Part shown: one piece after another, positions 9,445 through 34,224 of the stretch | Numbering within the stretch: the stretch's first letter is position 1 | How the letters are laid out: each line of letters begins with the position of its first letter | DNA from: Vulcanimicrobiota bacterium | GTDB taxonomy: Bacteria; Vulcanimicrobiota; Xenobia; Xenobiales; JADMJV01 | NCBI GenBank assembly: GCA_050250895.1 | Contig: JBFWNU010000001.1 | Location: forward strand, 3,776,149-3,840,148 | Direction: 5' to 3' | Length of the DNA: 64,000 nucleotides | The notes under the pieces: generated by a model | Told to the model about the DNA's origin: nothing | The model's database searches: none | Seen by the model: the letters and a program-made list of their open reading frames with translations, nothing else | Translations under genes and position numbers: made by a program

Positions 9445-9510
9445 AGACCCAGGATAACCGCGCGCGCGTGAACATGCTTGACCGGAATGTAACCTTTTTT
9501 GCAAGTCGGG

Positions 9511-10793: not shown

Positions 10794-10891
10794 TTGGCCC
10801 GCTTCGTTATCGCTCGGCTATCTCCTAGGGCCCTAGGAGGCCGAGCCGTTTTCTTGAACCTTGAAGGGATGAGCGGCGTAGCGGTGAGACG

Positions 10892-11524: not shown

Positions 11525-11855
11525 GCCTGTCTTCACAGGTGATGCAAAGGCCATCCTCGCTCCGCTAAGGGGCCAGAAGAGGGGCGGCCGGAGCCGCCCA
11601 GAGCTCCCTACATCACCAGGCAAGCCTTGGCAATGATTCCGAGAATCGTTATAATCGTAAAGATCACAACGATCACCCGAACGGGAGTGCAGTCACGGTG
11701 CTTCAACTTCATGGCTGCGCTCCTTCCGTTTTATCGCCCTGCTCTTACAGTGCGCCCCGCCCCGAAAGACGAGGATTCGTTGAAGCCACCCCCACACTTC
11801 GACGGGCCGGGTCGGCTCCTGTCGAACGTTTGTCTCGAGTTTTGGCGGGGGTCGC

Positions 11856-15160: not shown

Positions 15161-18100
15161 AGCACCGTCAGCAGGTTGTCGTCTTTCCACAGATCGGCCA
15201 GATAGCCGGTGCCGCCGGGCACGCCGTCGTAGAGCACCAGGTAATGGCGGCGGGCTCCCGAGGTGGGGTCGGGCTCGGACACCGCCTTGACCAGCAGGTG
15301 GCCGGGGTTGCCCTTGAAGTGGCGGCGCAGGCCCAGCAGCAGGGAGGCTTCGAACGAGGCCCGGCGAGCGTCGATGTTCTCGGCGGCCATGGGCAAGAGC
15401 AGACGGATCGCCTCGGACTGCACCTCGCGATAGAGCAAGATGGCCTTCGACTTCTCCTTGAAGGTGCCGCGCCGGTACTTGCAGTGAAAGGCGTGGTCGA
15501 TCTTGTCGCCCTCTTGCACCTTGCCGCACTGGTCGCAGACGGTGAAGCCGTCTTCGTGGATGGGCTGGCCAGCCACCCGCAGGTGGCCTCCGGTGGGGCG
15601 ATGCTGGCCGAAGTTGACCTCGCGCAAGGTGACCTTCTGCAGCAGCTCAAAGCCGAAAGGCAGCGACTCGATGAGGCGGGCTCCGCGCATGTGCTCGGGG
15701 CCCACGTCGATCAGGTTGACGGTGGTATAGCGCTCGTTCTGGCGCTCTTCGGTCTCGTCCACCGAGATGCTCTCGAGGGGGTTCGAGAAGGCCGAGGCCC
15801 GGCGAAAGGGCACCATCACCCGCAGCTGGCCGGTGTCGCCAAAGCCGGTGCAAGAGCAGCGCGGGCAGCGCTCGGGAGCCTTGCCTTCGGCCTGGCGGGT
15901 CATGTGGTGGCACTCGGGGCAAAAGCGCCACTGCTCGAACAGCGGCTGGCTGCTGCTGCCGATGTCGATCTGGCGAACCTGCACCTTGCGGCCCTCGGCA
16001 TAGAACGAGTTGAAGGGAGCGAACTCGCGAATGGCGGCGCTGGCGGCTCGCACGTACTCGCGGGTCTCATAGCGCTCGTCGACGGGGCCGTCGTCCTTGC
16101 GCTTGACCACCGAGCGCAGGGTGACTCCCGGTTCGGGAAAGGCATAGTTGGGCAGCACCCCGTCGTCGGTGAGGATGTTGAGGGGATACTTCTCGCGCAG
16201 CTCCTTGAGCAGGCGCTTCAAGACCCGGCGCGAGTCTTCGAGTTCGCGCTTTTCGAGGTCGGGATCGTCCGAGCTGTCGGGGTCTTGCTCGACCTGCTGA
16301 AAGCGCTTCTCGAGGCTCTCGACCTGCTTGCGCAGCTCGTTGCGGCGCTCGGCCACCGCCTCGAAGGCGTCGTCGAGCCAGGCCGGAATGGCCGGCCCCA
16401 GGCCAAACTCTTGCATGGCCTGGCGATTGGCATCGTCGAGCTCGTCGGCGAAAAGCTCGAGAAAGCGGGCCGTCAGCTCGGGTTGGTGTTGCTTGAAGAA
16501 GGCGATAGGACGACCGGGAAACTTCTCGCGGCCGGCTCCCAGGGTCTGGAAGGCGTGGCGGGGCACGGCCGAGAGCTCGTCCTCTTGGGCGGCCCAGCAG
16601 TCGAGCACGAAGGCCACCATCTGGCGCTTGAGCATCTCGGGGGCGTTGAGAAAGCAGCCCGGAGGCAGCACCTGGCCGGCCATCATCTCTTTGGGTTGGG
16701 TGTAGAAATAGAGATCGTGGGGGCGGCGCGTCACCCCAGCGGCGCGGCGCGCAGCGCCGGTAGGGAATGATGAGAGCGTCGCCACCGCGCCCGTTTAGCA
16801 ATCCTGGACTTGCGTTCTCATCGTTCCCGTCAAGCCGCGTCCAGGGTGAGGCCCACCGGGTGAGGGCCATCGACAGACAGAAGGCGTTGCCGGTCTGGCG
16901 GCCGGCCCGGCCCATGCGCTGCAGATAGTTGGCCGTAGCCGGAGGCACCGAGCACACCATGGTGGCCGACAGGTCGCCCACGTCGACACCCAGCTCGAGG
17001 GTGGGGGTGCAGACCAGCAGGTTGGGATCGCCCGGGGCTCCGCGTTTGAAGCGCTCTTCGAGCAGTTCGCGGTCGGGGCGTTGCAACAGGCCCGTGTGCT
17101 CGGAAGAGACGATGCGGGTGGTGTGGCCCGAGCGATAGATGCGCCCGTAGTAGCTCTCTTGGATGGCAGCCGGCTCGAGGCGTCCGTCGCAGCGAAAGCG
17201 AGGGCAGCGCTGGCCAACCCAGCGGTCGAGCGAGGTGGCGGCCAGGGTGGTGCGCTGGCCGCAGTGGGGGCAGACCACCTGGCCCACCTGGCGGCTGGCC
17301 CACATGGCTTCAGGACGCAACCCGCTGGCCTGGCCCTGGCCGCTGGGCAGGGTCTCGAGCAGGCCGTGCTGGTCGAGGCGCTTGACGGCCAGGGCATAGA
17401 GCGCGCCCATGCCGTCGTCTTTCTGGGGCGCTCCCAGGCAGCGCGAGGCCCAGTCGCGATACCAGTGCAGCGTGCTGCCCCGGTAGGTGTCGAAGATGTC
17501 GTGGCTGCTGTGCGAGTGAAGAAAGCGCGGCAGTCGCGTGCCGCGAGGAAAGGGCGACAGCAGCGGGTTCTTCTTCTTGCTCAAGAAATAGCTGTTGCCG
17601 TCTTTTTCGATGAAGCCTCGCAGCAGCGGATGCAGCACCGCTCCGCGCACCCTCAGGCGGTGCAAAAAGGCGTCGAGAAAGTGCCGCACGGTGGCCTCTT
17701 CGAGCTTGCTCACGGCCACCGGTCTGGTCTCGATCAGGTCCTGGGCCAGGGCGGCGGCCGCCGCATCCAGGCGCTGGGGGTCGAAATAGACGGTCGAGCA
17801 GCCGGTCTTTTCTAAGGTGCGACCGACCCGGGCGCTAAAGCCGTATTCCATGGCCACTTCCCAGCCCAGGCGCGTCTCGAGCTGGGGCCAGACCCGCTCG
17901 GGAGTGCCCTGCTCGAGGCTCTCGAGGTAGAGGGGATAGTCGTCAAGATCAGAGGGCCAGAAGCCGGCCAGCAGCCGGGCCGGCTCGCCCTCGGCTAGCA
18001 GGGCCTTCACGCATTCGCTCAGCGGCAGGTCGTGGTCGCGCTCTTCGAGCACCCGCTGCAGCTGGGTGCGCAGGTGAAAGCGGTAGGTGCGGGCGCCGAA

Positions 18101-19981
18101 GAAGCCGGAGCGATGCGAGGCGTCTTGCACCGAGTCGGTGAAGGCCAGCATCTTTTTGTCTTGATTGTAGGGAGTGTTGAACAACAGCGAGATGGCCACG
18201 CTCGAGAGGGTGGCCGCTCGCGAGCCCAGGATGCTGAGGGCCTTGTCGGCTCCGCACTCGAGGCACTGGCCGGCGAACTTGCGCGGGCCGCTGCCGGGCT
18301 TGGCGGTCTCGTTGGAGACGGCCACCGGAATCTCGCCTTCGGCCGCCTCCTGGGCGTAGTGAAAGCGCATGGTCGAGGTGTTGAGCATGTGGGGGAAGGC
18401 GCCGTCGGAGCGGGTCTGGTTGAGCAGCAGAAAGCGGGCCTGCTTGTTCTCTTCGAGAAAGGCGCGGCCGATCTCGGCGGTGGCGGTGAGAAAGCGCTGC
18501 TCGCCCACCCGCTCGAGGGTGCCCACCCCGCACACTCCGCACTCGTGGCAATAGACGATGGGCAGCCCGTGCTGGCCCGGCTGGCGACGCCGCTCGTCTT
18601 CCCAGAAGAAGCGAAGCTCGGGACCCACCTCGCGCAGCAGGCGGCGCAGCTCGCGAATCCAGACTTGCACCTGGCAGGTGAGAAAGGGGCGCAGCCGGCC
18701 CTCTTGCTCGTGGCGGGCGTGGGAGACCAGGGCCAGAAACGAGTCGAGGGCGTGGGGGCGCACGTCCTCGGGCAGCTCGCCAAAGTCCGATTCGAGGCGG
18801 GCCAGGTCTTCGCACAGCTCGTCTTGCGAGCGCAGCTTTCCCCCCAGCGAGGTCAACAGGCGGCGCAAAAATGTGTGTCGCTCGAGCAGCTTGCCCAGTG
18901 CCAGCGGGTCGGTTTGGGTTTGGCCGAGCCATAGCGCCGACTGGCTGGCCAGGTAGGTTTGGGGGTCGGGATAGCTCTCGAGCAGCAGCTGACTGGCCTG
19001 GTGGGGTTCGGGCACCCGTGAGATGGCGTCTTCAGGCTTGGGTAGAGGGAAGCGCTCGGCCACGCTCTGGCGCGACTCGCCCACCACCGACAGCTCAGAA
19101 AAGGCCCCTTCGCCGAAGACCTGGCTGGCGAAGTCGAGCAACTGGCGGGTCGACTCGGCCTGGTGGCGCTCGCCGATGGTGGCCGAGGTGCCCACGCAGC
19201 AGAGGCCTCCGGGCTGGATGGCCAGGCGCGCCTTGAGGCGCCGAATCAGGCAGGCCACATCGCTGCCCTGGGCGCCGTCATAGGTGTGCAGCTCGTCGAG
19301 CACCAGATAGCGCAGGGTGTCGGGCGTGTTGTGGGCCCACAGGGCCCGGTCGTCGGGGCGCTGCAGCAGAAAGTCGAGCATCTTGTAGTTGGTCAGCAAG
19401 ATGTCAGGAGGCGACTGGCGCAGTACCTCGCGGTCGTCGACCAGGTGCTCGGCGTCTGCCACCCGGTGTTGCCCCTGGCCGCCCACATAGAGCCCGGCCG
19501 TGACCTGCCCCTGCAGGCGCTCGTCTTCGGCCAGAATGCCGGCCAGACGGCGGGCCTGGTCGGTGGCCAGGGCATTCATCGGATAGAGCAAGATGGCCTT
19601 GATGCCCCGCTGCTCGCGAGTGCGATAGCAGTGGTCGAGGATGGGATAGAGAAAGCACTCGGTTTTACCCGACCCGGTGCCCGTCACCACCAGCGTATGG
19701 TGAGGTTGCTGCCCTTTGCGCGAGTGCAGGCGCAGAAAGGCCTGACGCTGGTGCTCGTAGGGGGTGAAGTTTGGCCGGATCTCGAGAAAGAGCTGGGCCT
19801 TGGGATCGGCCTGCTGGAAGGGTAGGCGCAGGTCGAGGTAAGGCCCTTTGAAAATGCCCTCGGGGCCGGCCAGGTAGTCGAAGAACGCCTGCTCGAAGAC
19901 CGGGTCGCTGAAGCTGAAGGTGGTCTTGAGGTAGTCGAGCAGGGTCTCTTTGAGTTGGGCCGCTACCAGCGAGGGGAACAT
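15161..19981 (-). pseudogene. Large DEAD/DEAH helicase of the YprA/DUF1998 type (DISARM-like), frameshifted by a 133 bp insertion and 3'-truncated
   Basis: TGTGSGKTE, YPMNALA.DQ, DELH, TSAT, TPTLELGVDVG, QR.GRAGR, RPHDLYFY, LP.Y.FP, LYD..PGGTGY; the terminal DUF1998 Cys cluster is missing. Confidence 0.85.
16726..16858 (+). mobile_element. Structured 133 bp non-coding insertion element, copy A
   Basis: Removing it restores MALT-RPHDLYFY in one frame; CCG occurs at both junctions; homologous to 11953-12086. Confidence 0.85.
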
Positions 19982-20075
19982 TCCAGGAGGTTGGACCTGT
20001 CAGGCGTGGTTACCTGCTTGCGGGATGTCGACGTGGAACATAAGAGCAGAGATGGCTGGAGCTTTGGTCTGGGCT

Positions 20076-21023
20076 CTATTGCGGGAAGACAATAATACTT
20101 TTCTTATTCAGACTTCGGTGTGTGTAGATGAGAATTATCACATTGAAGGTGGTGTCGAAGGCTTCGGCCAGACACTCCTGGAAAAGCCCGTTCTTGTCTT
20201 GGAGGACTATCTGGCGCGGTCTAGTCATTCGCCTACCGATCGGCAGAAGGGAACCAAATGGGTGGTCCAGGGTGATTATATGGTCTTGAGGCGGATGGAA
20301 CCTCGCTGTGAAAGACGGAGAAGGCTCGATGCGGCGTACCGTGGCTTGGGCGCCGAACCCCTCCACATACTCAATCGGCTCGAGCACGTAGACGATACAC
20401 TCTCGATGATTGGTCCGAGCGAACTCGCGGGCGGATGCGTAAATGGAGGCACCGAATTTCTTCGCCAACTTGATTGGTGTCTTGATTTCGAGTGGACTGT
20501 CAGCAGCAAGCTGAGCGTAGGTATCTCCTTGGAATAGAACAAATCTGGCGAAGTTGTTCGCTTCTCGTTCGAACTGGTCAGAGATCTCGGGCGCGAGCGT
20601 CTGCTCACAATCCTGAAACAGGCCAAACATCTGGCGGTGCGTAGGGAGTTGATGGTGACCGGCTTCGTGGAGCTTAATGAAATTTCTTTTGGAAGCTCCC
20701 AAAGTCTCGTCGATGTGAATGACTCGTTCCTGGGCGTCGTACAAGCCGAGTATCTTGGACAGCGCTGACTTGACCTGTGTTACGATCCTCGTTGCCTTTG
20801 AAGCCAAACGAGATGCATTAGCTTTGAAAAAATTCAAAATGTTTGTGGGATCGAATATTCCTTTCGGGGCAACTTTGACGGCGGCTGCCGCCAAGAGTTG
20901 GTCAACGGGGGTGGGGAAACGGTTCCATGCATCCGCCGCGTCCAATAGCCGGCGGGCGTGTTCCTGGACTTTACGAAGGTCAGCGTGCTCTAGCCAGCTA
21001 TCGTTGGGACGCATCGTCGGCAT
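20076..21023 (-). CDS. ImmA/IrrE family metallopeptidase (CapP-like)
   Basis: HEAGH zinc motif, E.EAN.FA, HTH-like LA..FGAS..A segment; overlaps the upstream XRE gene. Confidence 0.85.
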   Translation of the reverse strand: MPTMRPNDSWLEHADLRKVQEHARRLLDAADAWNRFPTPVDQLLAAAAVKVAPKGIFDPTNILNFFKANASRLASKATRIVTQVKSALSKILGLYDAQERVIHIDETLGASKRNFIKLHEAGHHQLPTHRQMFGLFQDCEQTLAPEISDQFEREANNFARFVLFQGDTYAQLAADSPLEIKTPIKLAKKFGASIYASAREFARTNHRECIVYVLEPIEYVEGFGAQATVRRIEPSPSFTARFHPPQDHIITLDHPFGSLLPIGRRMTRPRQIVLQDKNGLFQECLAEAFDTTFNVIILIYTHRSLNKKSIIVFPQ

Positions 21024-21372
21024 CTTTCGGGTTCTGGCTTCGAATGAATTTTAGGTAGGCGAGGAGCTGGCTCTCTTCCTCGCTGGTTAGGTGATGTTCC
21101 GCGAAGGTTGCAATGCTCCCGTGTCGCTCGGTCGGTTCACGCTTCTTTGACGGCACCACGTAACCAGCCATTTCCATCAACTTCGGATAGCTGATGTCAT
21201 AAAGCACGGCGAGAGCGTGCAGAATGTTAGGAGAAGGCTTCCCGACTCTGCCGTTTTCGATCTGGCTTAGGTAAGCGTTGGAGACTTCGCGGTTGGTAGC
21301 CTCCTCGACTTGTCGTAGCGTTAGATTTCGGTCGGCGCGAATCGAGGCAAGGTATTCGCCTAAACTTGACAT
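20998..21372 (-). CDS. XRE-family HTH regulator (CapH-like)
   Basis: LG.YL..IR....LTLRQVE.....VSNAYLSQIENG....PSP..L. Confidence 0.9.
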   Translation of the reverse strand: MSSLGEYLASIRADRNLTLRQVEEATNREVSNAYLSQIENGRVGKPSPNILHALAVLYDISYPKLMEMAGYVVPSKKREPTERHGSIATFAEHHLTSEEESQLLAYLKFIRSQNPKDADDASQR

Positions 21373-21395
21373 GATTACGAAAACTCCGAAGCCCA

Positions 21396-21614
21396 CTAAT
21401 AGTGGTCACCAGACTCGAGACCCCTCACGTTCGGGATTGGAGGAACGCTCTCGGAAGGAAGCAGATTCCTTCGAGAAATCGTAACCTCCTTGAGCATTTC
21501 CTCCTTCTTCCACCCGGGCCAGGACGCCATCTTCTCGGCGTGAGAGTCGGCAATACCCCTAACCAATGTTTCATCTCTCCCCGAACTGGCCAGGTTGTCT
21601 GTTGTTTGACTCAT
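21396..21614 (-). CDS. Small hypothetical protein (72 aa)
   Basis: AAGGAG ribosome-binding site upstream of the ATG; fills the gap between deaminase and HTH genes; SWPGWKK motif. Confidence 0.55.
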   Translation of the reverse strand: MSQTTDNLASSGRDETLVRGIADSHAEKMASWPGWKKEEMLKEVTISRRNLLPSESVPPIPNVRGLESGDHY

Positions 21615-21627
21615 CTTGATGTCTCCC

Positions 21628-23130
21628 TTAACCGTTAATGGAACTAGTATAGCCTATCTCATTGTATAGATATGCCTTGGCGGATTCCACTATTCTGGGA
21701 TAGGGCGCGCCAAGATACCATTTGAGAATCCTTCCACTCTCGTCCTTTCGTCTTTTACCCATCCGAAATAAGTCCATGTAAATTCTCGGAGCTATTCCAA
21801 CAAAGGGCCGAAAGTTTATCCTGCTTCCATCCTTACATTCGCTGTCAACTTGGATGGCATCATCGTGTAGAGTCTCGGCCAAGCTTTTTGGATACGGCTC
21901 GATGAAGACTACCTCAGCGATTCCGGCGGCGATGATGTGTCGTGTGCATTCGTGGCAGGGAAATGTTGTTACGTACATGACGTGGTCCTGGGTTGATATA
22001 CCTCTACGGGAAGCATCAACGATTGCGAACATCTCTGCGTGAACAGCTCGACCGAATTCGATAAGGTCAGCGAAATGTGCGCCTTCGAAGACTTCCTTTC
22101 TGAGTGGCTCGCTCATTTGAAGGTTTTCCAAAAATTCTAGTAAGCCTGATTGGCTCTTCACCTTTGGGGAGGAAACTAATCTTGCAATGATATCGTCCAA
22201 TATCCGGCGCTTGAGTATGTCATTAGAGTCTTCCCCGGTCACAAAATCTCTCCGGTCAGTGGATTCATCGGCCCAGTAGGCGCCACCGCCTTTCTTTGGG
22301 ACCTCGTTCATGCCCAGAGCCACTACGTTTCCATCCAGGGTGGCGACAGCGGCGCCCACTTGCCTACCAAGTGCTGACGAACGAAGAGCGGCACCGTAGG
22401 CTTGGAACATACAAAATTCTTCTCTCGTTGGAGTTAAATATGGCGCTCCAAAAAGTAGGTGAATAAAACGCTTGACCTGCGCATCTAGGCGCTCCTTTCT
22501 AACACTGAGGTCAAAAAAAACGTCTGCAAGGTGGAACGCGTCGCGAACGCGTTGACCATAGGAGACTCCCTCCTCTTTCCGATCTGTAGCGATTAGTTCG
22601 AGTGCCGTCGCATGGTGCTTCTCGGGTTGCTTCTCTCTACGAGAATCGGCGATTAGTCTAGCAAGACGCTTCGCTCTCGACTCGTGAGGCGCATAGGCTC
22701 CGAGGAGGAAGAACGAACGGCCGTAGATTTGCCGGAACGTCTCGACTTCTTCCCTCCTCTTTATGGAGCGAAAGATGTAGGACCGTGCGGGAAGAGGCGG
22801 AAGTATCCCCTCCTGGTCTGGTTTCTTAGTCTCACCCCAGACCTGTTGCCGAAATTCGAAAATCGCATTGACCGAGAGAAGCGCCAACGCGTCAGCCGCT
22901 CTCACGGAGCTACAAAAGTCCGTACCTCGTTTCATGAGCTTTCTATACCGTTCGTCAGCTGGCAATCTGACGGTGGGTTCATCCGCGGGAACGAGCTCTA
23001 TCAGGCGAATGATCTTGCTTTCGTAGCCAAGGCTCTTCAAGCTCTCCTCGAGAGAGGTCGTCAAGAGGGCAAGATCGGTGCCGATTGGACCGACCAGTCC
23101 GAAGAAGAGTTCCGGCAGCTTTGTGCTCAT
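21628..23130 (-). CDS. Anti-phage dCTP deaminase (P-loop kinase-like plus deaminase domains; AvcD/Dcd-like)
   Basis: GLVGPIGT P-loop-like motif, RS..L.RQVGA, HAEM and FPCHEC zinc motifs, IEPYPKS. Confidence 0.9.
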   Translation of the reverse strand: MSTKLPELFFGLVGPIGTDLALLTTSLEESLKSLGYESKIIRLIELVPADEPTVRLPADERYRKLMKRGTDFCSSVRAADALALLSVNAIFEFRQQVWGETKKPDQEGILPPLPARSYIFRSIKRREEVETFRQIYGRSFFLLGAYAPHESRAKRLARLIADSRREKQPEKHHATALELIATDRKEEGVSYGQRVRDAFHLADVFFDLSVRKERLDAQVKRFIHLLFGAPYLTPTREEFCMFQAYGAALRSSALGRQVGAAVATLDGNVVALGMNEVPKKGGGAYWADESTDRRDFVTGEDSNDILKRRILDDIIARLVSSPKVKSQSGLLEFLENLQMSEPLRKEVFEGAHFADLIEFGRAVHAEMFAIVDASRRGISTQDHVMYVTTFPCHECTRHIIAAGIAEVVFIEPYPKSLAETLHDDAIQVDSECKDGSRINFRPFVGIAPRIYMDLFRMGKRRKDESGRILKWYLGAPYPRIVESAKAYLYNEIGYTSSING

Positions 23131-23175
23131 TCCAAGATGATAATCAAAGATTGATGGAATTTCAACTCTTGTCGG

Positions 23176-23562
23176 CTATAATTTGCCTGGTGCGGGGGTG
23201 GTCACCCATTCTATATGACCGCTTCGAAACCAAAAGTGCGAACGACAACCTACGAGACGCCGAATCGACGGCTCAATTGACGTAGTTCCATCGGCGTCGA
23301 GTTGCACTCGCCAGCATGGCCGATCGTCGGGATTGAGGTTAAGATAGAGAATGGCCCCACATCTACAAGGGCAAGTCAGGACGGCCAACTCTTGGAACTC
23401 AGCCTCGACAACGATATAGAGTCTTCGTCCGCTCAACCGTCGGGGGAGTTCGTCCTCTACTAAAATGGTCGAATACCGGACATTTGGACGGCGTGACGAC
23501 CACCAGTCACGAACTCCTATCAAAATGGCCTCGACGGCCTGAACGAGCCAGCTAATCACCAT
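23176..23562 (-). CDS. DUF6527-like Cys/His protein
   Basis: CPC.CG....L.L......W, PSI....GCRSHFW...G...W. Confidence 0.8.
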   Translation of the reverse strand: MVISWLVQAVEAILIGVRDWWSSRRPNVRYSTILVEDELPRRLSGRRLYIVVEAEFQELAVLTCPCRCGAILYLNLNPDDRPCWRVQLDADGTTSIEPSIRRLVGCRSHFWFRSGHIEWVTTPAPGKL

Positions 23563-23567
23563 TTGAT

Positions 23568-24902
23568 TCAGGCCGCCGAGAGTTCTGATAGTCCCAGAAG
23601 TGGGACTACGTCCCCCAGGCCCTGTCTCGACGCGATAATCGGGCAGGTCGCACACTCAGGGTCGCAAAAGAGTTCCATGCTACCGAGGCTGAAGCCAACG
23701 CTGGCATATCTTTCGTTGGATTCCTCTCTGAACGGGTGCAACCTTGCCAGCAGCTCGTTCACGGCCAATGATGCGGCTAACATATTCACGCTTATGACTG
23801 CTGGCCGCTGAGTGACTACGCCAGTGATGTAGCCTTCTCCCGCTTGGGCGGCGTAGGCCTCTGGGTCGTCGCGTCGCAGTCCAGCTTCGCTCACCTGATT
23901 CATCGTGAACAGACCCCGGGTCAGCAGACTTGAGCCCCCAGGTTTCAGATAGTGTACGGTCCCACATACATCTTCGATCGGACGATGCCCTCCTAGACCC
24001 TTACGCGTCGCAATCCGGATGCCGATGTCGAAGTAGGGTTGATTGTAGTGTGAGGCAAGCAGGTTGAGCAGGAAGCGGCCATCCACTGAATCCATGCACC
24101 CAAAGACGATGTCGCATTCCCCGACCTCTCTCACTGCAGTCGGTGTCCAGAGATTTTTCTTGATCTGTCGAACCTTCGTCCCCAATCCCATCTCTTCAAT
24201 TCCCCTTGCAAGGACTTCGACTTTTGAACGCTTGGCTTCAGCATCCGCTGCCGTGGAATGCAGGATCCTGTTCAGGTTGCGTACTTCGACGATGTCGTCA
24301 TCAACCAAAACCAGTTCACCGACACCCAGCCGAGCCAACTGAATCGCAACAGGACTGCCGGTGCCAGAGACACCCACCACCGCTATTGAAAGCCGACGGA
24401 GACATTCAAAAGTGCCCTGATCAAAGGCCTGTAAGTGTGACGATGCGAAGCCCAGCCGAGTGTCGCAGTCTGCGGCGGATGGGGATACTCTAATTTCATC
24501 GCCGACCGTGTAGATACTGTCGATAGGAACAAAGGTGTGCTCTCTTGTCAGCACGAGGCCCTTCATAGTTCCGTCGGGTTGCATCCTGACCAAACCGTGT
24601 GGCGCACCCGATAGGGCCCGGAGGCTCGCTAGTAGTTCATTCTCCAGTTCCCGGGCTTCGCAATTCCGCGGCAGCACAACAAGGAAAGCCCCTCCCTCAG
24701 GAAGGGACATCCCGGTTATCAGGCCTGGCAATGACTCCCTCGCTGCGGGGATGATCTCCCGACCGACTATCCGCAGTGTGTTTCTACCGTGTCTGCATCC
24801 ACATCGTATGACCGCAGCGCACTCTGAATTTCCTCGATAGAGGCCCTCTCTCAGACCATCCACGATACATTCAGTCAAAGCGATTACGACCTTTTGATTC
24901 AT
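23568..24902 (-). CDS. ThiF/E1-like adenylyltransferase with a degenerate N-terminal JAB-like domain
   Basis: VVGVSGTGS, LARLGVG, VDDD.VE.RNLNR, FGCMDS..GR; the N-terminal domain has no HxH metal motif. Confidence 0.85.
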   Translation of the reverse strand: MNQKVVIALTECIVDGLREGLYRGNSECAAVIRCGCRHGRNTLRIVGREIIPAARESLPGLITGMSLPEGGAFLVVLPRNCEARELENELLASLRALSGAPHGLVRMQPDGTMKGLVLTREHTFVPIDSIYTVGDEIRVSPSAADCDTRLGFASSHLQAFDQGTFECLRRLSIAVVGVSGTGSPVAIQLARLGVGELVLVDDDIVEVRNLNRILHSTAADAEAKRSKVEVLARGIEEMGLGTKVRQIKKNLWTPTAVREVGECDIVFGCMDSVDGRFLLNLLASHYNQPYFDIGIRIATRKGLGGHRPIEDVCGTVHYLKPGGSSLLTRGLFTMNQVSEAGLRRDDPEAYAAQAGEGYITGVVTQRPAVISVNMLAASLAVNELLARLHPFREESNERYASVGFSLGSMELFCDPECATCPIIASRQGLGDVVPLLGLSELSAA

Positions 24903-25294
24903 TTTAGAAGTTCCCTTTCAAGCCAATCCTCTACCAGAATTATATGGGTCTCCAGGCTATCAAACCCAATGCGCCAAGGGTTCTGTTTGCTCCGGTGTCG
25001 CGACCATCTCTGATATGTCTTCGATTCAATGACCTGCTGGGCGTCCGTTGCACCGATTCTCTGTTGGTCCTCTCGAGCGATCCTCGGATGGAAATAGACC
25101 ATGTTGAGTTCTACGTTTGGGTATCCCGTCTCAATTCGGATCGCTGCGGTGGCCTTCCTCACTGTGTAGCCAGGCGGGAGCGGGAAGTCATGAATCAGCA
25201 CCCACCTCGACCCGTCGAGGACCGATTCCCAGGGCAGCCCATAATCGTTAAGAAAGGTCTCGTCGTTAGGCAAGAGGTCGAATTGACGGCGCAT
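24899..25294 (-). CDS. Prokaryotic E2/UBC-like protein (Prok-E2_E type)
   Basis: LP.GY, GYP...L.M.YF.P, QRWSRH, W....D.L.TH. Confidence 0.8.
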   Translation of the reverse strand: MRRQFDLLPNDETFLNDYGLPWESVLDGSRWVLIHDFPLPPGYTVRKATAAIRIETGYPNVELNMVYFHPRIAREDQQRIGATDAQQVIESKTYQRWSRHRSKQNPWRIGFDSLETHIILVEDWLERELLK

Positions 25295-25301
25295 AACTCC
25301 A

Positions 25302-25628
25302 TTACCCTTCCGTCTGGTCCCGAGGCACAGCCTTGAATCTTTCGATTCCCAGGACCGTCAGATCTACTCGCTCGTCCAACTTCACCTTTTTCGGTCGCTG
25401 GTTCGACAGCTTCACCCGAAGAGTGTAGTTTTCCGCGGGCAATAGACCGCCAAGCGTTAGGATATCGCGGCCTGTGGGAGTCGCTTGGCTGATCACGAAA
25501 GCGTCACCATTGATGCGCAGGCGGTATCCCCTCGCGAGAGGGGGCCGCTGTCCTCTTCTGGCATACTCCGCCAAATCAACATCCTGGTCCAGGACGTTTT
25601 CTACACCAGGGTCAACGTTGTGGCTCAT
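25302..25628 (-). CDS. Ubiquitin-like (multi-ubiquitin domain) protein ending in Gly
   Basis: TGR.IL.L.G, V.L.E.VDL...GIERF, C-terminal QTEG*; AAGGAGG ribosome-binding site. Confidence 0.85.
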   Translation of the reverse strand: MSHNVDPGVENVLDQDVDLAEYARRGQRPPLARGYRLRINGDAFVISQATPTGRDILTLGGLLPAENYTLRVKLSNQRPKKVKLDERVDLTVLGIERFKAVPRDQTEG

Positions 25629-25678
25629 CTTGAGCTGTCCTCCTTGTCATTTCTGTCGCGGCGAAACCGCTTGGTCGC

Positions 25679-25746
25679 ATCATATATGAAGCATGCTTGA
25701 TTTGTCAAGCAGAAACTGAAATGTGAACTGTCGGCAAGCGTGCTTG
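25679..25746 (-). promoter_or_regulatory. Sigma70-like promoter of the Ubl operon with overlapping palindromic operators
   Basis: Minus strand TTGACA(25708-25703)-N18-TATGAT(25684-25679); GAAGCATGCTTG at 25688-25699, GCTTGA-N4-TCAAGC at 25695-25710, CAAGCGTGCTTG at 25735-25746. Confidence 0.65.
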
Positions 25747-25801
25747 GAAAGGCGAGTTGAGGGTGGTATGGTGGCCGAAATCTGACCGAGGAGGCCGACG
25801 A

Positions 25802-27058
25802 ATGCTAGACCGCCTGGAGAAAGTGAGAGAGGCCCTGGAGCTCTGGCGCCAAGAGAAAACCTGGATGGCAGCACCGACTCCGGACGAGATCTGGGATGGG
25901 GCTACCGAGCTGGCTTGCGAGGCGGGAGTTGGGCCGGTGTCCAAGGCCTTGAGGCTGGACCACGCCAAGCTCAAGCGGGCGAGGAGCGGTTGCCGGCACC
26001 GGCTTTTCTTGAGGTCCGCTCGGGCTTGCGACCAGGTCAGAACCTCGCTTGCGTGCTCGAAGTTGCCCCGGGAGGTGGTCTCCGGGCTAGCATCTCCGGG
26101 GCCACCGCCGCCGACCTCGGCATCATCTTCCGGGCCTTCGCAGGCTGAGCGTGCTGCAGCTGACGCCACACATGCGGATCTGGTGGCCATGGAGCCGGTC
26201 GACGGGCGTAAGGGGATCGACTCGCTGGCTGCGCTGTGCCGGCAGAAGCTTCTCGAGGACCCGTTCTCCGGTGCCGTCTTCCTGTTCATCAATCGACGTC
26301 GGACGGCCGTGAGAGTTCTCTGCTACGATGGCGGGGGCTATTGGCTCGCACAGAAGCGGCTCTCGAAAGGGCGATATGGGTGGTGGCCGACCTCCAACTC
26401 GCCGAGCCAGTCGCTTGAACCGCATCAGGTTCACGCTCTCCTGGCGGCGGCGGCGAGCCCGACGATTCCTAACGCGCGGGTCTGGCGGCCCATCACGCCA
26501 GCTGGCCGAAATTAGTGCCCTTGTCAGCATGAAACTCGCCAGGTTTGCAGAAATCTGCACGCCGTCACGGGGATCCCGCGGCGGAAAGGTTTCTCTTGAG
26601 CAAACGGCGCAACCCAAAGGTCGTGGAGATCTATGTCCAGGAAATCGAGGACATCATCGATGCGACTGCAACCGGTCCGTTGGCCTCCGATGAGCGGGAG
26701 AAGCTTCGTCAGGCGGTCCGCCTGCTACTCGAGCATGTCCGCCCAGAATTTCGAAACTCCGAGAAGCTGAAGACCCTGGTCAAAGACCTTCTGGAAGACC
26801 AGAAGGAAGGTGCCTCGTCTGAAGACGGAGCAGAGCAGCCGCCCCCAAAGAAGAAGCGCAAAGGCCACGGTCGGCGTCCGACCTCAGAATTCACGGGCGC
26901 CCAGAAGGTCCCGGTGGAGCACCAGGAGCTGCACAAGGGCGATGTTTGTCCCGAGTGCAGCCGAGGCAAGCTTCACGACACCAAGAAGCCGAAAGTGCTC
27001 CTCCGAGTTGTGGGTAGCCCGCCGATTCAGGCCACCGCCTACGAGCTACAAAAGCTGC
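25802..27058 (+). mobile_element. IS66-family remnant: frameshifted tnpA (25802-26148), frameshifted tnpB (26151-26515) and the N-terminal part of tnpC (26623-27058) cut by IS21
   Basis: PVDGRKGIDSL...DPFSG.VF.F.NRRR....L.YDG.GYWL..KRL..G is IS66 TnpB; KGHGR and CPEC occur in the TnpC N-terminus. Confidence 0.85.
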
Positions 27059-27166
27059 TGTTAGCAACGCTCTCAATTTGATCCACCCAACGCTCAAAAA
27101 GTGATCCACCCCAACACCGTTATCCGGTAAACTGGAGTTGAAAAGACTTCAAGTTCCGGAGGAAGG

Positions 27167-28228
27167 ATGCTGAAAGTGGATCAAATCTATGTTATCAGAG
27201 ACAAAGTAATCAGGGAAGGGAAAAGTCAAAGGCAGGCAGCCCGAGAAGTCGGCTGCAGTCGGAACACGGTGCGACGCTGCCTTGCGAACCTACAGACGAA
27301 GCCCGGGTCACCCCGGCCGAAGGTTCAACGGCCGAGTCCCGTGAGTGACCAGGCGGAGTCGCAGATTGAGCAAATCCTCGCCGAATGGGAAGGGCGCACT
27401 ACTCAGAAGCAGCGGGTGACCGGCAGCCGCCTCCATACCGAGCTTTTAAGCCGGGGGATCCAGGTCGGAGTGACCACGGTCCGGCGGATTCTTCGAGAGA
27501 TCAAACGCCGCCAAGCGGAGGTCTACATCCCCCTCGTTCACCGTCCGGGTGACGAGGCTCAGGTGGACTTCTTCGAAGTCACAGTGGACATCGCTGGCGA
27601 GCGCAGGAAGCTCTGGATGTTCCTGATGCGCCTGATGTATTCGAAGCGTGATTTCGCCTGGCTCTACGAACGCTGCGACCAGCTCGCTTTCCTTGATGGC
27701 CATGTGCGCGCCTTCGCTCACTTTCGTGGCGTGCCGCATCGTTGCGTGTACGATAACCTGAGACCAGCCATGAAGAAGGTCGTGCTCCCGCGCCGGGAGC
27801 TGACCAAGAGCTTTGCAGCGCTGTTGAAGCACTATCTGTTCGAGCCCTGCTTTGCGCGCGTGGCCCGAGGCGACGATAAGGGTGGTGTAGAGGCCCGAGG
27901 CAAAGGGGTTCGGCTGCAGCACATGACCCCGATTCCCAAAGGAGAGACCCGCGACGATATTTGCCAGCGGCTGGTCGCCCAGTTGGATGCGCGCGCTCAG
28001 CAGACCAAGCTTTCGGACGGCCGCACCATCCGGGACCGGTTCGTCGAGGAGCATTGCTTGATGTTGCCCGCGGCGCACCCTTACCAGGCCCAACGAACCC
28101 ATCTGGTCTCGGTCGACAAAACCTCGATGGTTCAGGTTGAAGGGGCGCGCTACTCGCTGCCGAGTGCCTGAGCAAGGCTCGATGTGACGGCCCACGTCCG
28201 GGTTGAGGATGTCGAGTGTAGCTGGGGA
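27167..28228 (+). pseudogene. istA: IS21 transposase IstA, with a nonsense codon at 28169 and truncated
   Basis: HTH (SRNTVRR), PG.EAQVDF, YDNL, KGGVE DDE residues, YSLP; coding-like frame continues past the TGA. Confidence 0.85.
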
Positions 28229-28263
28229 CACTCGCCGCCAAGTTTTGTGAAGTCTATTTGGCC

Positions 28264-28299
28264 AAAAGGTGAGGCCTGACCCGGCGCGGGCCAGGCCTC
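28264..28299 (-). terminator. Probable intrinsic terminator
   Basis: GAGGCCTG...CAGGCCTC hairpin followed on the minus strand by CCTTTT. Confidence 0.45.
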
Positions 28300-28305
28300 G
28301 CTGGT

Positions 28306-28842
28306 CTAGAAGGGACACGGCCTCAATGTTGGCTCACCCGGAACGGAGGCCGTCAGCCCGGTGACGAGGATGCCAAGGTTCTTGGATACCTTCTGCATCG
28401 TGTGGCAGAGCGAGAGCATCTCCGACCAGTAGTCGCCCAGAAGAACCGGGGCGTTGTAGCGATAAGCCATGGATTGGCACAAGTCCAGGGCGCCAGCGTA
28501 GGTTCCGGGCAACCGCCACAGGTCCAGGTCCTCCCGCTGATGTCCGGTGAAGCTGGCTCGGTAAACGGTGACGTCCCTGGCTTCAAGCCAGGATACGATG
28601 CCAATAGAGTCCTGCGCCCAGCAGGGGATGGCCACCAGAACACTCCAACCGCCATCAATGTGGTCTTTCCAGTAGCGCTCGAAGTGATCGAGGTCTCGAA
28701 ATCCCCGCCAGCCCAGCACGAAAAGCTGGCCCTGGGGGTCTCCGTAGATCACTCGGGCGAAGTCGCCCTCGTCGTTGAAGTCGATGCCCACGACCAGGCA
28801 AAGGGGAGCTTGGATCGTGGACTGGGTCTCTGGTTCGTTCAT
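28306..28842 (-). CDS. Hypothetical protein (178 aa)
   Basis: AGGAGG ribosome-binding site; follows the ExeA-like gene. Confidence 0.6.
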   Translation of the reverse strand: MNEPETQSTIQAPLCLVVGIDFNDEGDFARVIYGDPQGQLFVLGWRGFRDLDHFERYWKDHIDGGWSVLVAIPCWAQDSIGIVSWLEARDVTVYRASFTGHQREDLDLWRLPGTYAGALDLCQSMAYRYNAPVLLGDYWSEMLSLCHTMQKVSKNLGILVTGLTASVPGEPTLRPCPF

Positions 28843-28867
28843 GTTGATTCCTCCTGTGGCTTGGGTT

Positions 28868-29674
28868 TCAGTCCGCCTGGAGGACGGACAAGACGGTGTT
28901 GACGAGTTCCTCGTCGATGGGCGTGAGCTTGCGGCGGGCGCTCTTCTTGAGCGCCGCTAGCGCCAGTCGGTTGAGGCGACGAGGAATACCCTGGGAGTGG
29001 TCAAAAAGGGCAGCCCGGGCGCTGTCGGTGAAGAGCCCTTCATTGGCTCCGCTGGCTCTGAGGTGGGCCTCGATGTAGCTGAAGGTCTCCTCTCGGGAGA
29101 GGCCCTCCAGGCGATAGTGCATGCGAAGACGGTCCCATAGAGCCAGATGGACGGGCCTCTGAAGTCGTAGCCGCAGGGCCGGGTGGCCCACCAGCACGAG
29201 CACCAGCGGGTCCTGGGCATCCATCTCGAAGTTGGTCAGGAGCCGCAGGTCTTCTAGCAGACCGTCTTCGATCAGGTGAGCGTCGTCCACCAGGATCATG
29301 GTCTTTTTGCGCTGTTCCTGGTAAAGGCGCTGGCTGCGTGTGCTGAGCTGGCGCAAGAGGTCAGAACGGTAACGGCAGGGTGCCAGGCCGAGCCGCTCGA
29401 TGAGTTGCTCGAGGATGCCCTTGGGATGGCGGCTCGAGCCTGCGTAGGCAACTTCGCAACTCATGCGGTCCAAGCTGGCCAGAAAGGCCCGCAAGGCTGT
29501 CGTTTTGCCGATTCCCATCTCTCCGGTGAGCAGACCCACGCCGCCTTCCCAAACGAGCGTGTCCAATTCCTCGTGGAGTTCTTCGAGCTGAGGGTAGATC
29601 AGTAGCTGGTCCGTGGCCAGTGTCTTGGTGAATACTGGGGCCGCCAATCCGTGGAAGTTTCTGTAGTTAGCCAT
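28868..29674 (-). CDS. ExeA/TniB-like AAA ATPase (transposition helper type)
   Basis: GEMGIGKT Walker A, VDDAH Walker B, LRLL.NF.MD, LVG.P, GIPRRLN. Confidence 0.85.
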   Translation of the reverse strand: MANYRNFHGLAAPVFTKTLATDQLLIYPQLEELHEELDTLVWEGGVGLLTGEMGIGKTTALRAFLASLDRMSCEVAYAGSSRHPKGILEQLIERLGLAPCRYRSDLLRQLSTRSQRLYQEQRKKTMILVDDAHLIEDGLLEDLRLLTNFEMDAQDPLVLVLVGHPALRLRLQRPVHLALWDRLRMHYRLEGLSREETFSYIEAHLRASGANEGLFTDSARAALFDHSQGIPRRLNRLALAALKKSARRKLTPIDEELVNTVLSVLQAD

Positions 29675-30406: not shown

Positions 30407-32173
30407 TCAGAGCTGATCGGCATCGTATCTAAACCTAATCCGTTCCAGTGTCGGGGTGACCTCGTAGTTCCCGCCGCGCTTGGTTCGAAAGCCGAATTCC
30501 GATATCAGATGCAAGGAGCGTTTCGCACGGGAGGCGACAACATAGAGCAAGCGTATCGAATCGTCCCATCCTTCGTCGTCCGAATGAATCACCGATGCCC
30601 ATGCTGGGCAGTGCCCCTTCAGAAGGCCAAAGCAGATTACCACCTCGAACTCCAGTCCCTTCACTGCGTGGCAGCTTGTGACTTGGACGCCTGTCCGGGT
30701 GAAGGAACTCCTGAAGAACTCAAAGTCCATCTCGGTCTCGAGCCATCCGAGACGACCGGCGATAGTTGCCAGGTAAGCGTTGATCGACTCGGCTAGGGGT
30801 CCCCCAGCTTCCAATTTCACAAATTGAGAGAGAAACGTTGTCAGGAGCTCTTTCAGATAGGCGATCCCTGTGTCATGCGGGCGTATCTCGCGTATGACCC
30901 TAATGCACGCTCTTGCCGAAGTGCTCACAACGTCCAAGGAGAACTCATCACTGAGTTCCCTGAGCAGGAGGGCCGCTTCTCCACGCCGCCATCGAATGTT
31001 TCGAGCGTTGGGTTCCCCAAAGTGCAATGCGATGACACGATGCCAAACGCCATCTGACTCTTTGAAAATGGCCGCACCTGGCACATTCACAGGAATGTCG
31101 GGTAGTAGCGCGGCGACTTCTCTGGCGACGGGGAGCAACACCCTCCACTTTGGCGCCAAGACGCAGATTTCTTCAGGCGCCACGCCATTACCAACGTGAC
31201 CCTGGATGAGAGAGGCGATTCGATCAGCGACGTTGTGCCGGCCGTAAGTCAATCGGTCGAAGGAGATACATCCCCTGGTGTCCCGACCATCTCCCATCGC
31301 GACAACATTCAAGTTAGAAACCCGGAAGTTCGTGCAGAAATCTACAATACGGCTGCTAGAACGGTAGTTCCCACTTAGTTCCAGCGGGGCGATCTCTTCG
31401 CGGCAAAAGATCGATTCAAGCTCAGGTGCCGTTTTGACAACGCCGCCAAGAGACCGATATATCGCCTGATCTGGATCTCCTACCACAAAGATTCGGGTCG
31501 AGCCCGAGCCTAGAATCAGACCAAGTATCGAGTATTGAACCTCACTCGTGTCCTGGTATTCGTCGAGGTAGATGCCTTCGAACAGTCGGGCCAGATTCTT
31601 GCAGGCGCACGGAAGCTTCTTCAGGAGTTTGTATGTGTAATACAGACACTGATCGTGGTCGACCAATCCGGCGGCCTTCAATTCCTGGTGATAGTTGTAA
31701 ATGATATCGCGATGAATATCGCGGTCTAGGCCGAGGGCTTCCAAAGGTTCGCCGTTGAGTCCCAACCTGGTCGGGATCTCAATCCAAGGGTCGAGATCGT
31801 GTCCCGCTTTGAGGCGGTCTAGGATTTCTCGAATAGTTCCTTCACTAGCCACTCGGAATGATCGTCGCAGCGGTGGGCTATAGCACCGGTATGGATGCAA
31901 GACCCACTCTCGGCAAAATGAGTGGATCGTGCCCACCCATAGTCGAGCATCGCGAACGCCAGCGTCTGCGAAACGTCGCGTGATCTCCTCAGCTGCGCGG
32001 ATGGTATAGGTGAGTCCGGCAAGAAATCTCCTTCGCCCTTCGGGAAGGCGTGCGACATCGCGGAGCATCTTCGCGGCTAGGACTCGGGTCTTCCCACTCC
32101 CCGGACAGGCCTGGACCAATGCGTCACCGGGTGCTTTGAGCGCCTGCCTTTGCTGGTCATTCAGTTCGCTCAT
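30407..32173 (-). CDS. gajB: UvrD-like helicase, Gabija GajB
   Basis: ACPGSGKT, GTIHSF, LDEYQD, VGDPDQAIY, NYRS, H..KGLEF, LYV..SRAK; overlaps the OLD nuclease gene. Confidence 0.85.
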   Translation of the reverse strand: MSELNDQQRQALKAPGDALVQACPGSGKTRVLAAKMLRDVARLPEGRRRFLAGLTYTIRAAEEITRRFADAGVRDARLWVGTIHSFCREWVLHPYRCYSPPLRRSFRVASEGTIREILDRLKAGHDLDPWIEIPTRLGLNGEPLEALGLDRDIHRDIIYNYHQELKAAGLVDHDQCLYYTYKLLKKLPCACKNLARLFEGIYLDEYQDTSEVQYSILGLILGSGSTRIFVVGDPDQAIYRSLGGVVKTAPELESIFCREEIAPLELSGNYRSSSRIVDFCTNFRVSNLNVVAMGDGRDTRGCISFDRLTYGRHNVADRIASLIQGHVGNGVAPEEICVLAPKWRVLLPVAREVAALLPDIPVNVPGAAIFKESDGVWHRVIALHFGEPNARNIRWRRGEAALLLRELSDEFSLDVVSTSARACIRVIREIRPHDTGIAYLKELLTTFLSQFVKLEAGGPLAESINAYLATIAGRLGWLETEMDFEFFRSSFTRTGVQVTSCHAVKGLEFEVVICFGLLKGHCPAWASVIHSDDEGWDDSIRLLYVVASRAKRSLHLISEFGFRTKRGGNYEVTPTLERIRFRYDADQL

Positions 32174-34218: not shown

Positions 34219-34224
34219 GCTCTA

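Follow-up and report, generated by a model that had tools for sequence, protein, structure and literature searches.

A dCTP deaminase gene and a candidate partner gene lie within a Type I Bub operon with relocated CapH and CapP genes in a Vulcanimicrobiota bacterium

The window analyzed here is a stretch of 64,000 nucleotides from the genome of a Vulcanimicrobiota bacterium (GenBank assembly GCA_050250895.1, contig JBFWNU010000001.1, positions 3,776,149 to 3,840,148 of the forward strand), and all coordinates given below are positions within it. The window contains a block of eight minus-strand genes in which a gene for a dCTP deaminase and a 72-codon open reading frame (orf72) are situated between a Type I Bub ubiquitin-like conjugation operon (bubA, bubB, bubCD, and bubE) and the genes for the regulators CapH and CapP. 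We favor, with moderate confidence, the interpretation that the block consists of two defense modules joined under one DNA damage switch. According to this interpretation, a Type I Bub operon was joined by a two-gene deaminase module (the deaminase and orf72), followed by Bub's own capH-capP pair. CapH would repress the retained operator and promoter before bubA. DNA damage, in the form of single-stranded DNA, would activate CapP, which would cut CapH and permit transcription of the string of genes. Bub would tag its targets by way of oxyesters formed with a tyrosine of the E1 and a serine of the E2. The orf72 product would clamp the kinase-like domain and C-terminal tail of the deaminase, and the deaminase would separately deplete dCTP and thereby block phage DNA synthesis. 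Bub and the deaminase would share a common switch and travel as a pair, with neither being a substrate of the other.

Eight genes with operon-like spacing

An earlier note on this DNA, made from the sequence alone, had described eight same-strand, tightly packed, AT-richer genes behind one promoter. All eight minus-strand open reading frames (ORFs) are present at the positions that it named, and Pfam, PADLOC, and NCBIfam agree with every gene name that it gave. The bubB gene starts 7 nt after bubA and overlaps bubCD by 4 nt; bubE follows 5 nt later, and gaps of 45, 13, and 23 nt precede the deaminase gene, orf72, and capH, respectively. The capH and capP genes overlap by 26 nt, and no gap exceeds 45 nt. 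The G+C fraction is 0.49 to 0.57 over positions 20000 to 25500, compared with 0.63 to 0.70 over positions 14000 to 20000. The scan of the eight-gene block called no terminator-like sites in its intergenic gaps. The genes may therefore be cotranscribed.

The notion of one promoter is less certain. A near-consensus promoter (designated P1; TTGACA-18-TATGAT, 11 of 12 matches) was found on the minus strand at 25708 to 25679, 50 nt ahead of the bubA start codon. However, a second, weaker promoter-like site, the candidate internal promoter TTGAAA-17-TATCAT (10 of 12 matches; 23137 to 23165, minus strand), occupies the 45-nt gap before the deaminase gene. The −10 element of this site stops 6 nt ahead of the deaminase ATG, and thus a transcript starting there would be leaderless. 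The promoter scan yielded 3 promoter-like sites versus 3.4 in shuffled sequences, and neither P1 nor the internal site is significant by count.

Bub conjugation genes

On the basis of family matches and conserved motifs, the first four genes are a Type I Bub (6E.1/DUF6527) ubiquitin-like conjugation operon. Bub operons, formerly known as "6E" or "DUF6527," were described in 2024 (bioRxiv 10.1101/2024.11.21.623953 and.623966). The proteins of the Type I Bub operon of Citrobacter sp. RHBSTW-00271 (BubAB-BubCD-BubE) are the best Protein Data Bank (PDB) matches of the window proteins, and the two sets have in common a Gly-ended ubiquitin-like protein (Ubl), a Prok-E2_E E2 with a Ser-x-His motif, an E1 with a GYITG tyrosine behind a JAB-type domain, and a DUF6527 protein with a C4 zinc site and a Ser-His dyad. 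To place the window genes among their relatives, related loci were gathered with an alignment of the conserved E2 (BubB), because alignments of BubE diverged too much to serve as the seed of such a scan. This provided 80 loci from genomes and 80 from metagenomes, 160 in all.

The bubA gene (25302 to 25628, minus strand) encodes a single-domain Ubl of 108 amino acids that matches Pfam Multi_ubiq (PF14452; 6.4e-11) and, in the PDB, Bub Ubls including Citrobacter BubA (2.1e-5). Its C terminus, DQTEG, is common to 71 of the 77 separate Ubls of the related loci. The stop codon directly follows the Gly, with 7 nt then separating it from bubB, and there is no Ubl-E2 fusion (BubAB). Separate bubA and bubB genes are the rule in this subfamily, and the fusion is kept in two loci (L015 and L080). 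A long, fused Ubl-E2 ORF was also observed in a Bub set with E1 and BubE on an IMG/VR viral contig (L162, positions 9167 to 12113), the E2 of which is 40% identical to that of the window.

The adjacent bubB gene (24899 to 25294, minus strand) encodes the E2, with matches to Prok-E2_E (PF14462; 2.5e-39) and to Citrobacter BubB (9eae; 1.7e-25). The predicted catalytic residues are Ser98 and His100 within QRWSRHR, which are invariant across 25 sequences, and the protein has no catalytic Cys motif. It keeps 44 of 46 highly conserved positions.

The E1 gene, bubCD (23568 to 24902, minus strand), matches ThiF (5.2e-28) and Citrobacter BubCD (9ea5; 1.7e-56). Within the adenylation domain (approximately residues 150 to 444), Tyr358 in GYITG aligns with the Citrobacter GYITGV, and the loop contains no Cys; the GYIxG motif is present in 122 of 125 relatives. 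The N-terminal JAB/JAMM domain (approximately residues 1 to 150; nucleotides 24453 to 24902) is degenerate. The JAMM ligands are substituted (H65M, H67L, S75V, and D78P), 26 amino acids are deleted, and 17 of 39 conserved N-terminal positions are changed, versus 1 of 89 in the adenylation domain. Of 125 full-length relatives, 121 retain an intact JAMM motif. Pfam Prok-JAB matches all four relatives tested and does not match the window BubCD. Judged by these substitutions, the JAB half of the window BubCD is catalytically dead.

The ATG start codon of bubE (23176 to 23562, minus strand) lies just past the E1 stop codon; an alternative GTG start listed at 23655 would overlap the E1 gene. The product is a DUF6527 protein (PF20137; 7.2e-21) with a hydrophobic N-terminal extension. 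Its C4 zinc site (C64, C66, C68, and C106), S99, and H109 fall in invariant columns of 61 sequences, and the roles assigned to these residues, zinc-binding cysteines and a Ser-His protease dyad, are those given in the Bub preprints (bioRxiv 10.1101/2024.11.21.623953 and.623966). A search of 60 genomes related to the source genome found no other DUF6527 gene, which fits horizontal acquisition.

A DcdV-type dCTP deaminase

The fifth gene (21628 to 23130, minus strand) encodes a protein with an N-terminal P-loop-kinase-like domain and a zinc-dependent deoxycytidylate deaminase domain. It matches dCMP_cyt_deam_1 (6.7e-17), the PADLOC dCTPase model (1.4e-147), and, over its full length, the NCBIfam anti-phage dCTP deaminase family NF041025 (425.9 bits, against a cutoff of 400). 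The zinc motifs H364-A-E366 and P391-C-H-x-C395 are invariant columns in 47 sequences. The domain pair, the zinc motifs, and the score above the cutoff are also the features that it has in common with the DcdV-DifV system, and on this sequence evidence, it is a genuine DcdV-type anti-phage dCTP deaminase. It is the sole copy in the source genome. Its closest relative among 5.8 billion proteins is 61% identical, all others are at most 48% identical, and the copy on a plasmid of Escherichia coli ETEC H10407 is 31.7% identical. A scan of genome contigs with the deaminase sequence alone recovered no relative.

DcdV-type enzymes are toxic when overexpressed and are restrained by the small RNA DifV, whose gene lies immediately 5′ of the deaminase gene (bioRxiv 10.1101/2021.03.31.437871). 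In the window, there seems to be too little room for such a 5′ RNA because only 45 nt separate bubE from the deaminase gene. The window differs from DcdV-DifV in having a predicted binder of the deaminase encoded on the 3′ side, orf72, and in the location of the deaminase gene inside a CapH/CapP unit.

A candidate protein partner of the deaminase

The ORF orf72 (21396 to 21614, minus strand) begins 13 nt past the deaminase stop codon, with a GGGAG ribosome-binding site 9 nt ahead of its ATG. The predicted 72-amino-acid protein is an orphan, with no family match in Pfam, PADLOC, or NCBIfam and no relative among the 5.8 billion proteins. Comparison of the orf72 spacer with the fetched loci at the DNA level showed no likeness, and the Atlas scores for orf72 are at most 0.87, with low recognition. 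Searches at the RNA level gave no clear signal. No Rfam family matched over positions 19900 to 25900, where a lone long noncoding RNA hit was at chance level (E = 0.72), and the predicted RNA fold of the orf72 region had a z score of −1.68, with 11 of 200 shuffled sequences folding equally well.

Orphan status at first made it doubtful that orf72 is coding, and a complex prediction now supports coding. The deaminase and the orf72 product scored 0.74 as a complex, whereas the best of three controls scored 0.00. In calibration, the 0.74 mark was reached by 58 of 80 complexes of solved structure, as it was by 2 of 110 mismatched pairs; these counts hold only roughly here because the prediction used a custom alignment. 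Repeated runs had at least 76% of their contacts in common, with a pLDDT of at least 65 for the partner. The predicted contacts are with residues 47 to 134, in the kinase-like domain of the deaminase, and with its last 12 residues; deaminase residues 84 to 91 and 489 to 500 and orf72 residues 18 to 29 are among them. These models support the possibility that the orf72 product binds the deaminase. Mutations that make DcdV insensitive to DifV are located in the kinase-like domain and near the C terminus, as described in that study (bioRxiv 10.1101/2021.03.31.437871). The parallel between those sites and the predicted orf72 contacts is only approximate because the two proteins could not be aligned.

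Comparison with other deaminase loci provided weaker indications. Small ORFs after three other deaminase genes have 21 to 32% identity to orf72, with the core RKEMxxWPxWKKE, a weak likeness that was found post hoc. A small same-strand ORF directly after the deaminase gene is present in 19 of 24 loci versus 1360 of 2000 random positions, which is not above chance in these G+C-rich genomes. A WxxWKK-type motif is common to orf72 and the corresponding ORFs of loci L166 and L170. Defined after those ORFs were seen, it recurs in 2 of 23 other loci versus 51 of 5000 random positions and in none of 6 plasmid deaminase loci, which is weak evidence. In one alphaproteobacterial clade (L054, L169, and L172), small ORFs after the deaminase stop codon end in ..RSGIF.. 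or ..KSGLL... On Photobacterium and E. coli plasmids, ORFs just before the deaminase gene (L217, 1148 to 1318, and L219, 1188 to 1373) both end in ..K(I)xW. In some lineages, the DifV-type locus may be a source of small proteins. If the predicted complex is correct, then a DcdV-type deaminase would for the first time have a protein, in orf72, as its keeper instead of an RNA.

Relocated regulators and a retained operator-type box

The block ends with a regulator pair. The capH gene (20998 to 21372, minus strand) encodes an XRE-type helix-turn-helix (HTH) protein (HTH_31, 5.5e-11; PADLOC capH, 2e-5), and capP (20076 to 21023, minus strand) encodes an M78/IrrE-type metallopeptidase with the motif HEAGH (Peptidase_M78, 4.7e-6; PADLOC capP, 5.4e-13). 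Such an XRE HTH and M78/IrrE HExxH pair, matching the PADLOC models and associated with a conserved box at the regulated promoter, resembles the CapH-CapP switch of CBASS and other systems (bioRxiv 10.1101/2022.04.27.489752). CapH and CapP were linked with 168 of 544 Bub operons in the Bub preprints (bioRxiv 10.1101/2024.11.21.623953 and.623966). The window CapH is up to 70% identical to CapH proteins encoded divergently upstream of bubA in related loci, and the window CapP is up to 61% identical to Bub-linked CapP proteins (phmmer E values down to 1e-129). Conserved positions are kept at 35 of 36 sites in CapH and 83 of 88 sites in CapP. CapH and CapP are as close to Bub-linked pairs as the window Ubl and E2 are to their Bub relatives, and thus the regulators belong to Bub rather than to the deaminase.

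The location of the pair is unusual. In the operons found in the study that described the switch, capH-capP was always upstream and on the opposite strand (bioRxiv 10.1101/2022.04.27.489752). The usual order in relatives of the window operon is likewise capP and capH divergent from bubA, bubB, bubCD, and bubE. Of the 80 genome loci, 46 have both CapH and CapP (E < 1e-10), as do 49 of the 80 metagenome loci, and none of the 160 related loci has CapH/CapP matches 3′ of bubE. In contrast, the window pair is downstream and codirectional, behind the genes that it presumably controls.

Other regulator arrangements were observed among the related loci. A three-gene set, encoding proteins of about 200 and 152 amino acids and an M78 peptidase of about 280 amino acids, replaces CapH-CapP upstream of Bub in L020, L060, L066, and L067. 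In one locus, L073, an HTH/M78 module different from CapH-CapP is present downstream of bubE, and the three-gene set is located there on the same strand (13239 to 15143). In 9 of 80 Bub loci (L031, L034, L043, L046, L053, L016, L044, L048, and L049), a pair of genes for an AAA ATPase (about 390 amino acids) and an S8 subtilase (about 765 amino acids) flanks the regulators. In Rhizobium-type loci, capP is missing and the AAA-S8 pair converges on capH with a 4-bp gap. This pair may serve CapH as an alternative protease partner, or it may be a defense pair of its own.

The promoter region of bubA has retained what appears to be one half of a regulatory site. In the capH-bubA spacers of related loci (L002 to L081; 52 spacers examined), two conserved boxes surround two divergent −35 elements with the architecture GTCAAGCRYGC, 8 to 9 nt, TGCTTGAYA, 5 nt, AGCRYGC. 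The strict pattern was matched by the first box in 43 and by the second box in 36 of the 52 spacers, and near variants of the bubA-side box are visible in most of the spacers that fail it. These paired boxes are probably the CapH operators of Bub operons. The window retains the bubA-side box exactly, in a promoter and CapH-type operator region at 25679 to 25710 on the minus strand (−35 element, 25708 to 25703; −10 element, 25684 to 25679; box GCTTGACAAATCAAGCATGC, 25710 to 25691). A 10-bp palindrome, AAGCATGCTT, is situated between the −35 and −10 elements at 25698 to 25689. Within the island, the GCTTGAYR word was found only at the Bub promoter. The retained box is thus a putative operator, and binding of CapH to it is what we infer from its match to the spacer pattern.

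In the window, the place where relatives carry capH-capP is taken by an IS66-family element (25722 to 27058, plus strand; TnpB_IS66, 1.5e-24) that ends 11 bp upstream of the Bub −35 element. It includes tnpA, tnpB, and the start of tnpC. A second IS66 copy elsewhere in the genome is 99% identical over exactly 25722 to 27058. The suggestion in the earlier note that the block is damage inducible is likely to be correct, considering the orthologous regulators and the retained operator-type box.

Recurrence of deaminase genes beside Bub operons

Neighborhood analysis gave a mixed answer to the idea that the linkage is a conserved one. Embedding of a deaminase gene inside the Bub unit was found in none of the 160 related loci, making the window the sole case among 161. 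However, looser adjacency is recurrent; the fetched flanks contain deaminase genes in five loci, four of the 80 from genomes and one of the 80 from metagenomes (about 3%). Two of these, in records of two Rhizobium species (L031 and L034), carry a Bub-deaminase island that is 100% identical over 4.1 kb, suggesting recent transfer or one mobile island. In L031, bubE is followed after 700 bp by the deaminase gene, which is on the same strand and behind an apparent strong hairpin with a T-run that resembles a terminator. The deaminase gene is convergent after bubE in L054 and L103 and lies beyond capP in L064; it is convergent to the Bub/CapHP unit in three of the four other lineages. Either capH alone (one case) or both capH and capP (three cases) are beside Bub in the four other adjacent cases. 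On a tree of 62 deaminase family members, the state of being next to Bub has at least four separate origins. A search for an accessory gene shared by the Bub-adjacent deaminase loci found none; the deaminase and BubE alone are in common.

The adjacency exceeds that of three control defense families. The deaminase is itself rare, with copies above the cutoff in 15 of 401 genomes sampled from the class. The 80 genome loci come from 79 genomes, 5 of which contain a deaminase gene; it adjoins the Bub unit in 4 and is on another contig in the fifth. For the controls in these 79 genomes, Bub loci contained none of the 21 SMODS copies (15 genomes), none of the 8 Shedu copies (8 genomes), and at least 6 of the 114 AbiEii matches (51 genomes; the sum of the genome rows). 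Conditional on both genes being in a genome, adjacency was found for the deaminase in 3 of 5 genomes versus 6 of 74 for the controls (Fisher P = 0.009), a comparison in which the identical L031/L034 island was merged and the window left out, and which has small numbers blurred by fragmented metagenome-assembled genomes. In a sample centered on the deaminase, 1 of 18 genomes had a Bub operon, on a separate contig, and none of the 18 deaminase loci of the class-wide sample lay within 1.5 kb of Bub genes. Bub-deaminase adjacency looks nonrandom, and these results suggest, in a small sample, that Type I Bub operons have dCTP deaminases as neighbors more often than expected by chance.

One explanation for adjacency would be a direct connection between the two proteins. 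The earlier note had proposed that conjugation may control the deaminase and that its terminal Gly could make it an E1 substrate. Bub might conjugate BubA to the deaminase, or activate its terminal Gly in the manner of Cap2, so that conjugation switches the deaminase on or off. There is a precedent in type II CBASS (Cap2/Cap3), in which, as summarized in the Bub preprints, an E1-E2 fusion conjugates the C terminus of the CD-NTase; as in the window, E1 and E2 functions are beside a nucleotide-directed defense enzyme. The C terminus of the window deaminase is Gly, the two genes are neighbors in 3 of the 5 other independent cases in which a genome has both, compared with 6 of 74 for the three control families, and the juxtaposition arose at least four times with different deaminase lineages. 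However, terminal Gly is not a family trait. It is present in 8 of the 120 deaminase homologues listed, one of which is the window deaminase itself, and in none of the four other Bub-adjacent deaminases, and it was rejected as an E1 handle. Furthermore, the window differs from type II CBASS in having a separate Ubl and Tyr and Ser in place of Cys, in addition to the unconserved terminal Gly. The Bub-adjacent deaminases are 32 to 40% identical to one another, compared with 55 to 70% for the Bub proteins, and are scattered on the tree in varied orientations, with no sign of coevolution. No deaminase was found in the fetched flanks of 155 of the 160 related Bub loci, and in the predicted complex the final 12 residues of the window deaminase pack against the orf72 product. 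Control of the deaminase by conjugation thus found no support in these comparisons, and we consider it improbable.

Another possibility is that the two systems communicate through a signal. The deaminase could sense infection, and corruption of the dCTP/dUTP pool could stall replication and generate single-stranded DNA that activates CapP and thereby induces Bub. With all the genes in one unit, as in the window, a positive feedback loop would result, and cotravel would be selected whatever the orientation of the genes. Adjacency does recur regardless of orientation (same strand, convergent in two cases, and beyond capP), which fits a link by a diffusible signal rather than by cotranscription. 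Overexpression of DcdV impairs genome replication, as stated in that study (bioRxiv 10.1101/2021.03.31.437871), and the regulators that would receive the signal are next to Bub in the other adjacent cases, as noted above. Yet Bub operons do not need such a relay, because some lack CapH/CapP and many have CapH/CapP without a deaminase, and the recurrence consists of a sample of five events from which the relay is deduced. It therefore seems quite unlikely. The broader proposition that DcdV-type deaminases are recurrent functional partners of Type I Bub, either as an effector or target of BubA conjugation or as an upstream trigger of the single-stranded DNA signal, with orf72 additionally being the first protein keeper, is likewise doubtful.

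The interpretation that we favor, two independent effectors under one damage switch, is consistent with the finding that the deaminase family works alone elsewhere. Deaminase genes are the main cargo of 4.6-kb plasmids, and among the plasmid records listed (60 of the 66 with a Bub E2, and 47 with a deaminase), the two sets have no accession in common; a look for sequencing runs listed none, nor any RNA holder. Several observations weigh against it. The promoter-like site before the deaminase gene could mean that there are two transcription units, with CapH controlling Bub only. The CapH-operator word was not found upstream of any of the five Bub-adjacent deaminases (the window and four others), and thus regulatory capture is not the general reason for adjacency. 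Adjacency above that of three control families hints at more than independent co-carriage. The JAB domain, which is degenerate here and kept by 121 of 125 relatives, indicates that the Bub half may be impaired. In addition, the Bub authors stated as of 2026 that phage protection by Bub had not been shown.

Surrounding defense island

The window is a multisystem defense island. A gene for a DruE-like (Druantia) DEAD/DEAH helicase of about 1900 amino acids in total (14035 to 19981, minus strand) starts 94 nt past capP on the same strand and has a host-like G+C content. It consists of two overlapping frames. The first extends from 19981 to 16067 and is real to approximately residue 1040, followed by out-of-frame junk, and the second extends from 16785 to 14035 and includes an MrfA Zn-binding domain. 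This split points to a frameshift near 16785 to 16860 or to two genes. On the other side of the block, Gabija genes and an adjoining gene occupy the region 30407 to 38751 on the minus strand, with GajA at 32170 to 34218 (1e-234), GajB at 30407 to 32173 (7.5e-162), and a Type IIG restriction-methyltransferase of 1508 amino acids at 34225 to 38751 (2e-272). Nested mobile elements fill positions 25722 to 29674, in which the IS66 element with its curtailed tnpC is followed by an rve/Mu-type transposase gene (27167 to 28171). The other strand of this stretch encodes an AAA_22 protein (28868 to 29674) and an ORF of 178 amino acids with no assigned family.

Such surroundings raise the possibility that the block has no functional integration, that is, that it is part of a rearranged and partly decaying island in which deaminase genes entered a variable cargo slot after bubE by chance or by way of a shared insertion hotspot. 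The dead JAB domain, the IS66 element at the promoter, the lack of DNA or protein relatives for the spacer around orf72, and the dense collection of a split DruE-like helicase, Gabija, a Type IIG enzyme, and nested insertion sequences would all be expected in that case. Other genes are found beside Bub operons as well (AbiEii in 6 loci, integrases in 5, and the AAA-S8 pair in 9 of 80), and Bub E2 and the deaminase never share a plasmid record among those listed. However, all eight ORFs are intact with operon-like spacing, and outside the JAB domain nearly all of the highly conserved residues are kept (E2, 44 of 46; CapH, 35 of 36; CapP, 83 of 88; E1 adenylation domain, 88 of 89). The conditional adjacency above three controls (P = 0.009) is also not expected from mere neighborhood. 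We therefore regard this explanation as unlikely.

Relation to known systems

The assertion that there was no description combining a Ubl-E2-E1-DUF6527 operon, a dCTP deaminase, and CapH/CapP withstood a full-text search for all three parts, which yielded two general reviews at most, with the proviso that the supplementary neighborhood tables of the Bub preprints may hold cases. The word "deaminase" is absent from the available text of both Bub preprints and of the CapK/CapS paper. The three-part combination appears to be unpublished, but the Ubl-E2-E1-DUF6527 set is the published Bub operon and its association with CapH and CapP is also published. Bil (bacterial ISG15-like) operons are another point of comparison, in that they have a set of Ubl, E2, E1, and deubiquitinase genes in a defense context. 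Features of their own, as summarized in the Bub preprints, are cysteine thioesters, a separately encoded JAB protein, and an E1 with tandem adenylation domains, and the match of the PADLOC BilD model to the window E1 is weak (0.0026).

Relative to the Citrobacter Type I Bub operon, the window has separate bubA and bubB genes, a dead JAB domain, capH-capP at the 3′ end, and an embedded deaminase module. What is new is the deaminase module between bubE and the relocated regulators, the BubCD with a dead JAB domain, the candidate protein partner of the deaminase, and the suggestion, from a small sample, that dCTP deaminases adjoin Type I Bub operons above chance.

Bub is a recently described and biochemically unusual ubiquitination-like pathway that proceeds through oxyester intermediates. 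A defense enzyme of known mechanism recurs independently beside Bub, and in the source genome it lies inside a CapH/CapP-flanked unit, which provides a testable lead as to whether Bub acts with, on, or after dNTP depletion. The window also offers three natural variants for dissection: a BubCD with a dead JAB domain, regulators moved to the 3′ side, and a deaminase with a candidate protein partner replacing the DifV RNA. If the two halves of the block are independent, then it would be one more case of defense modules fused under a common damage switch. If the partnership of the deaminase and Bub is true in either form, then it would be the first functional handle on Bub systems.

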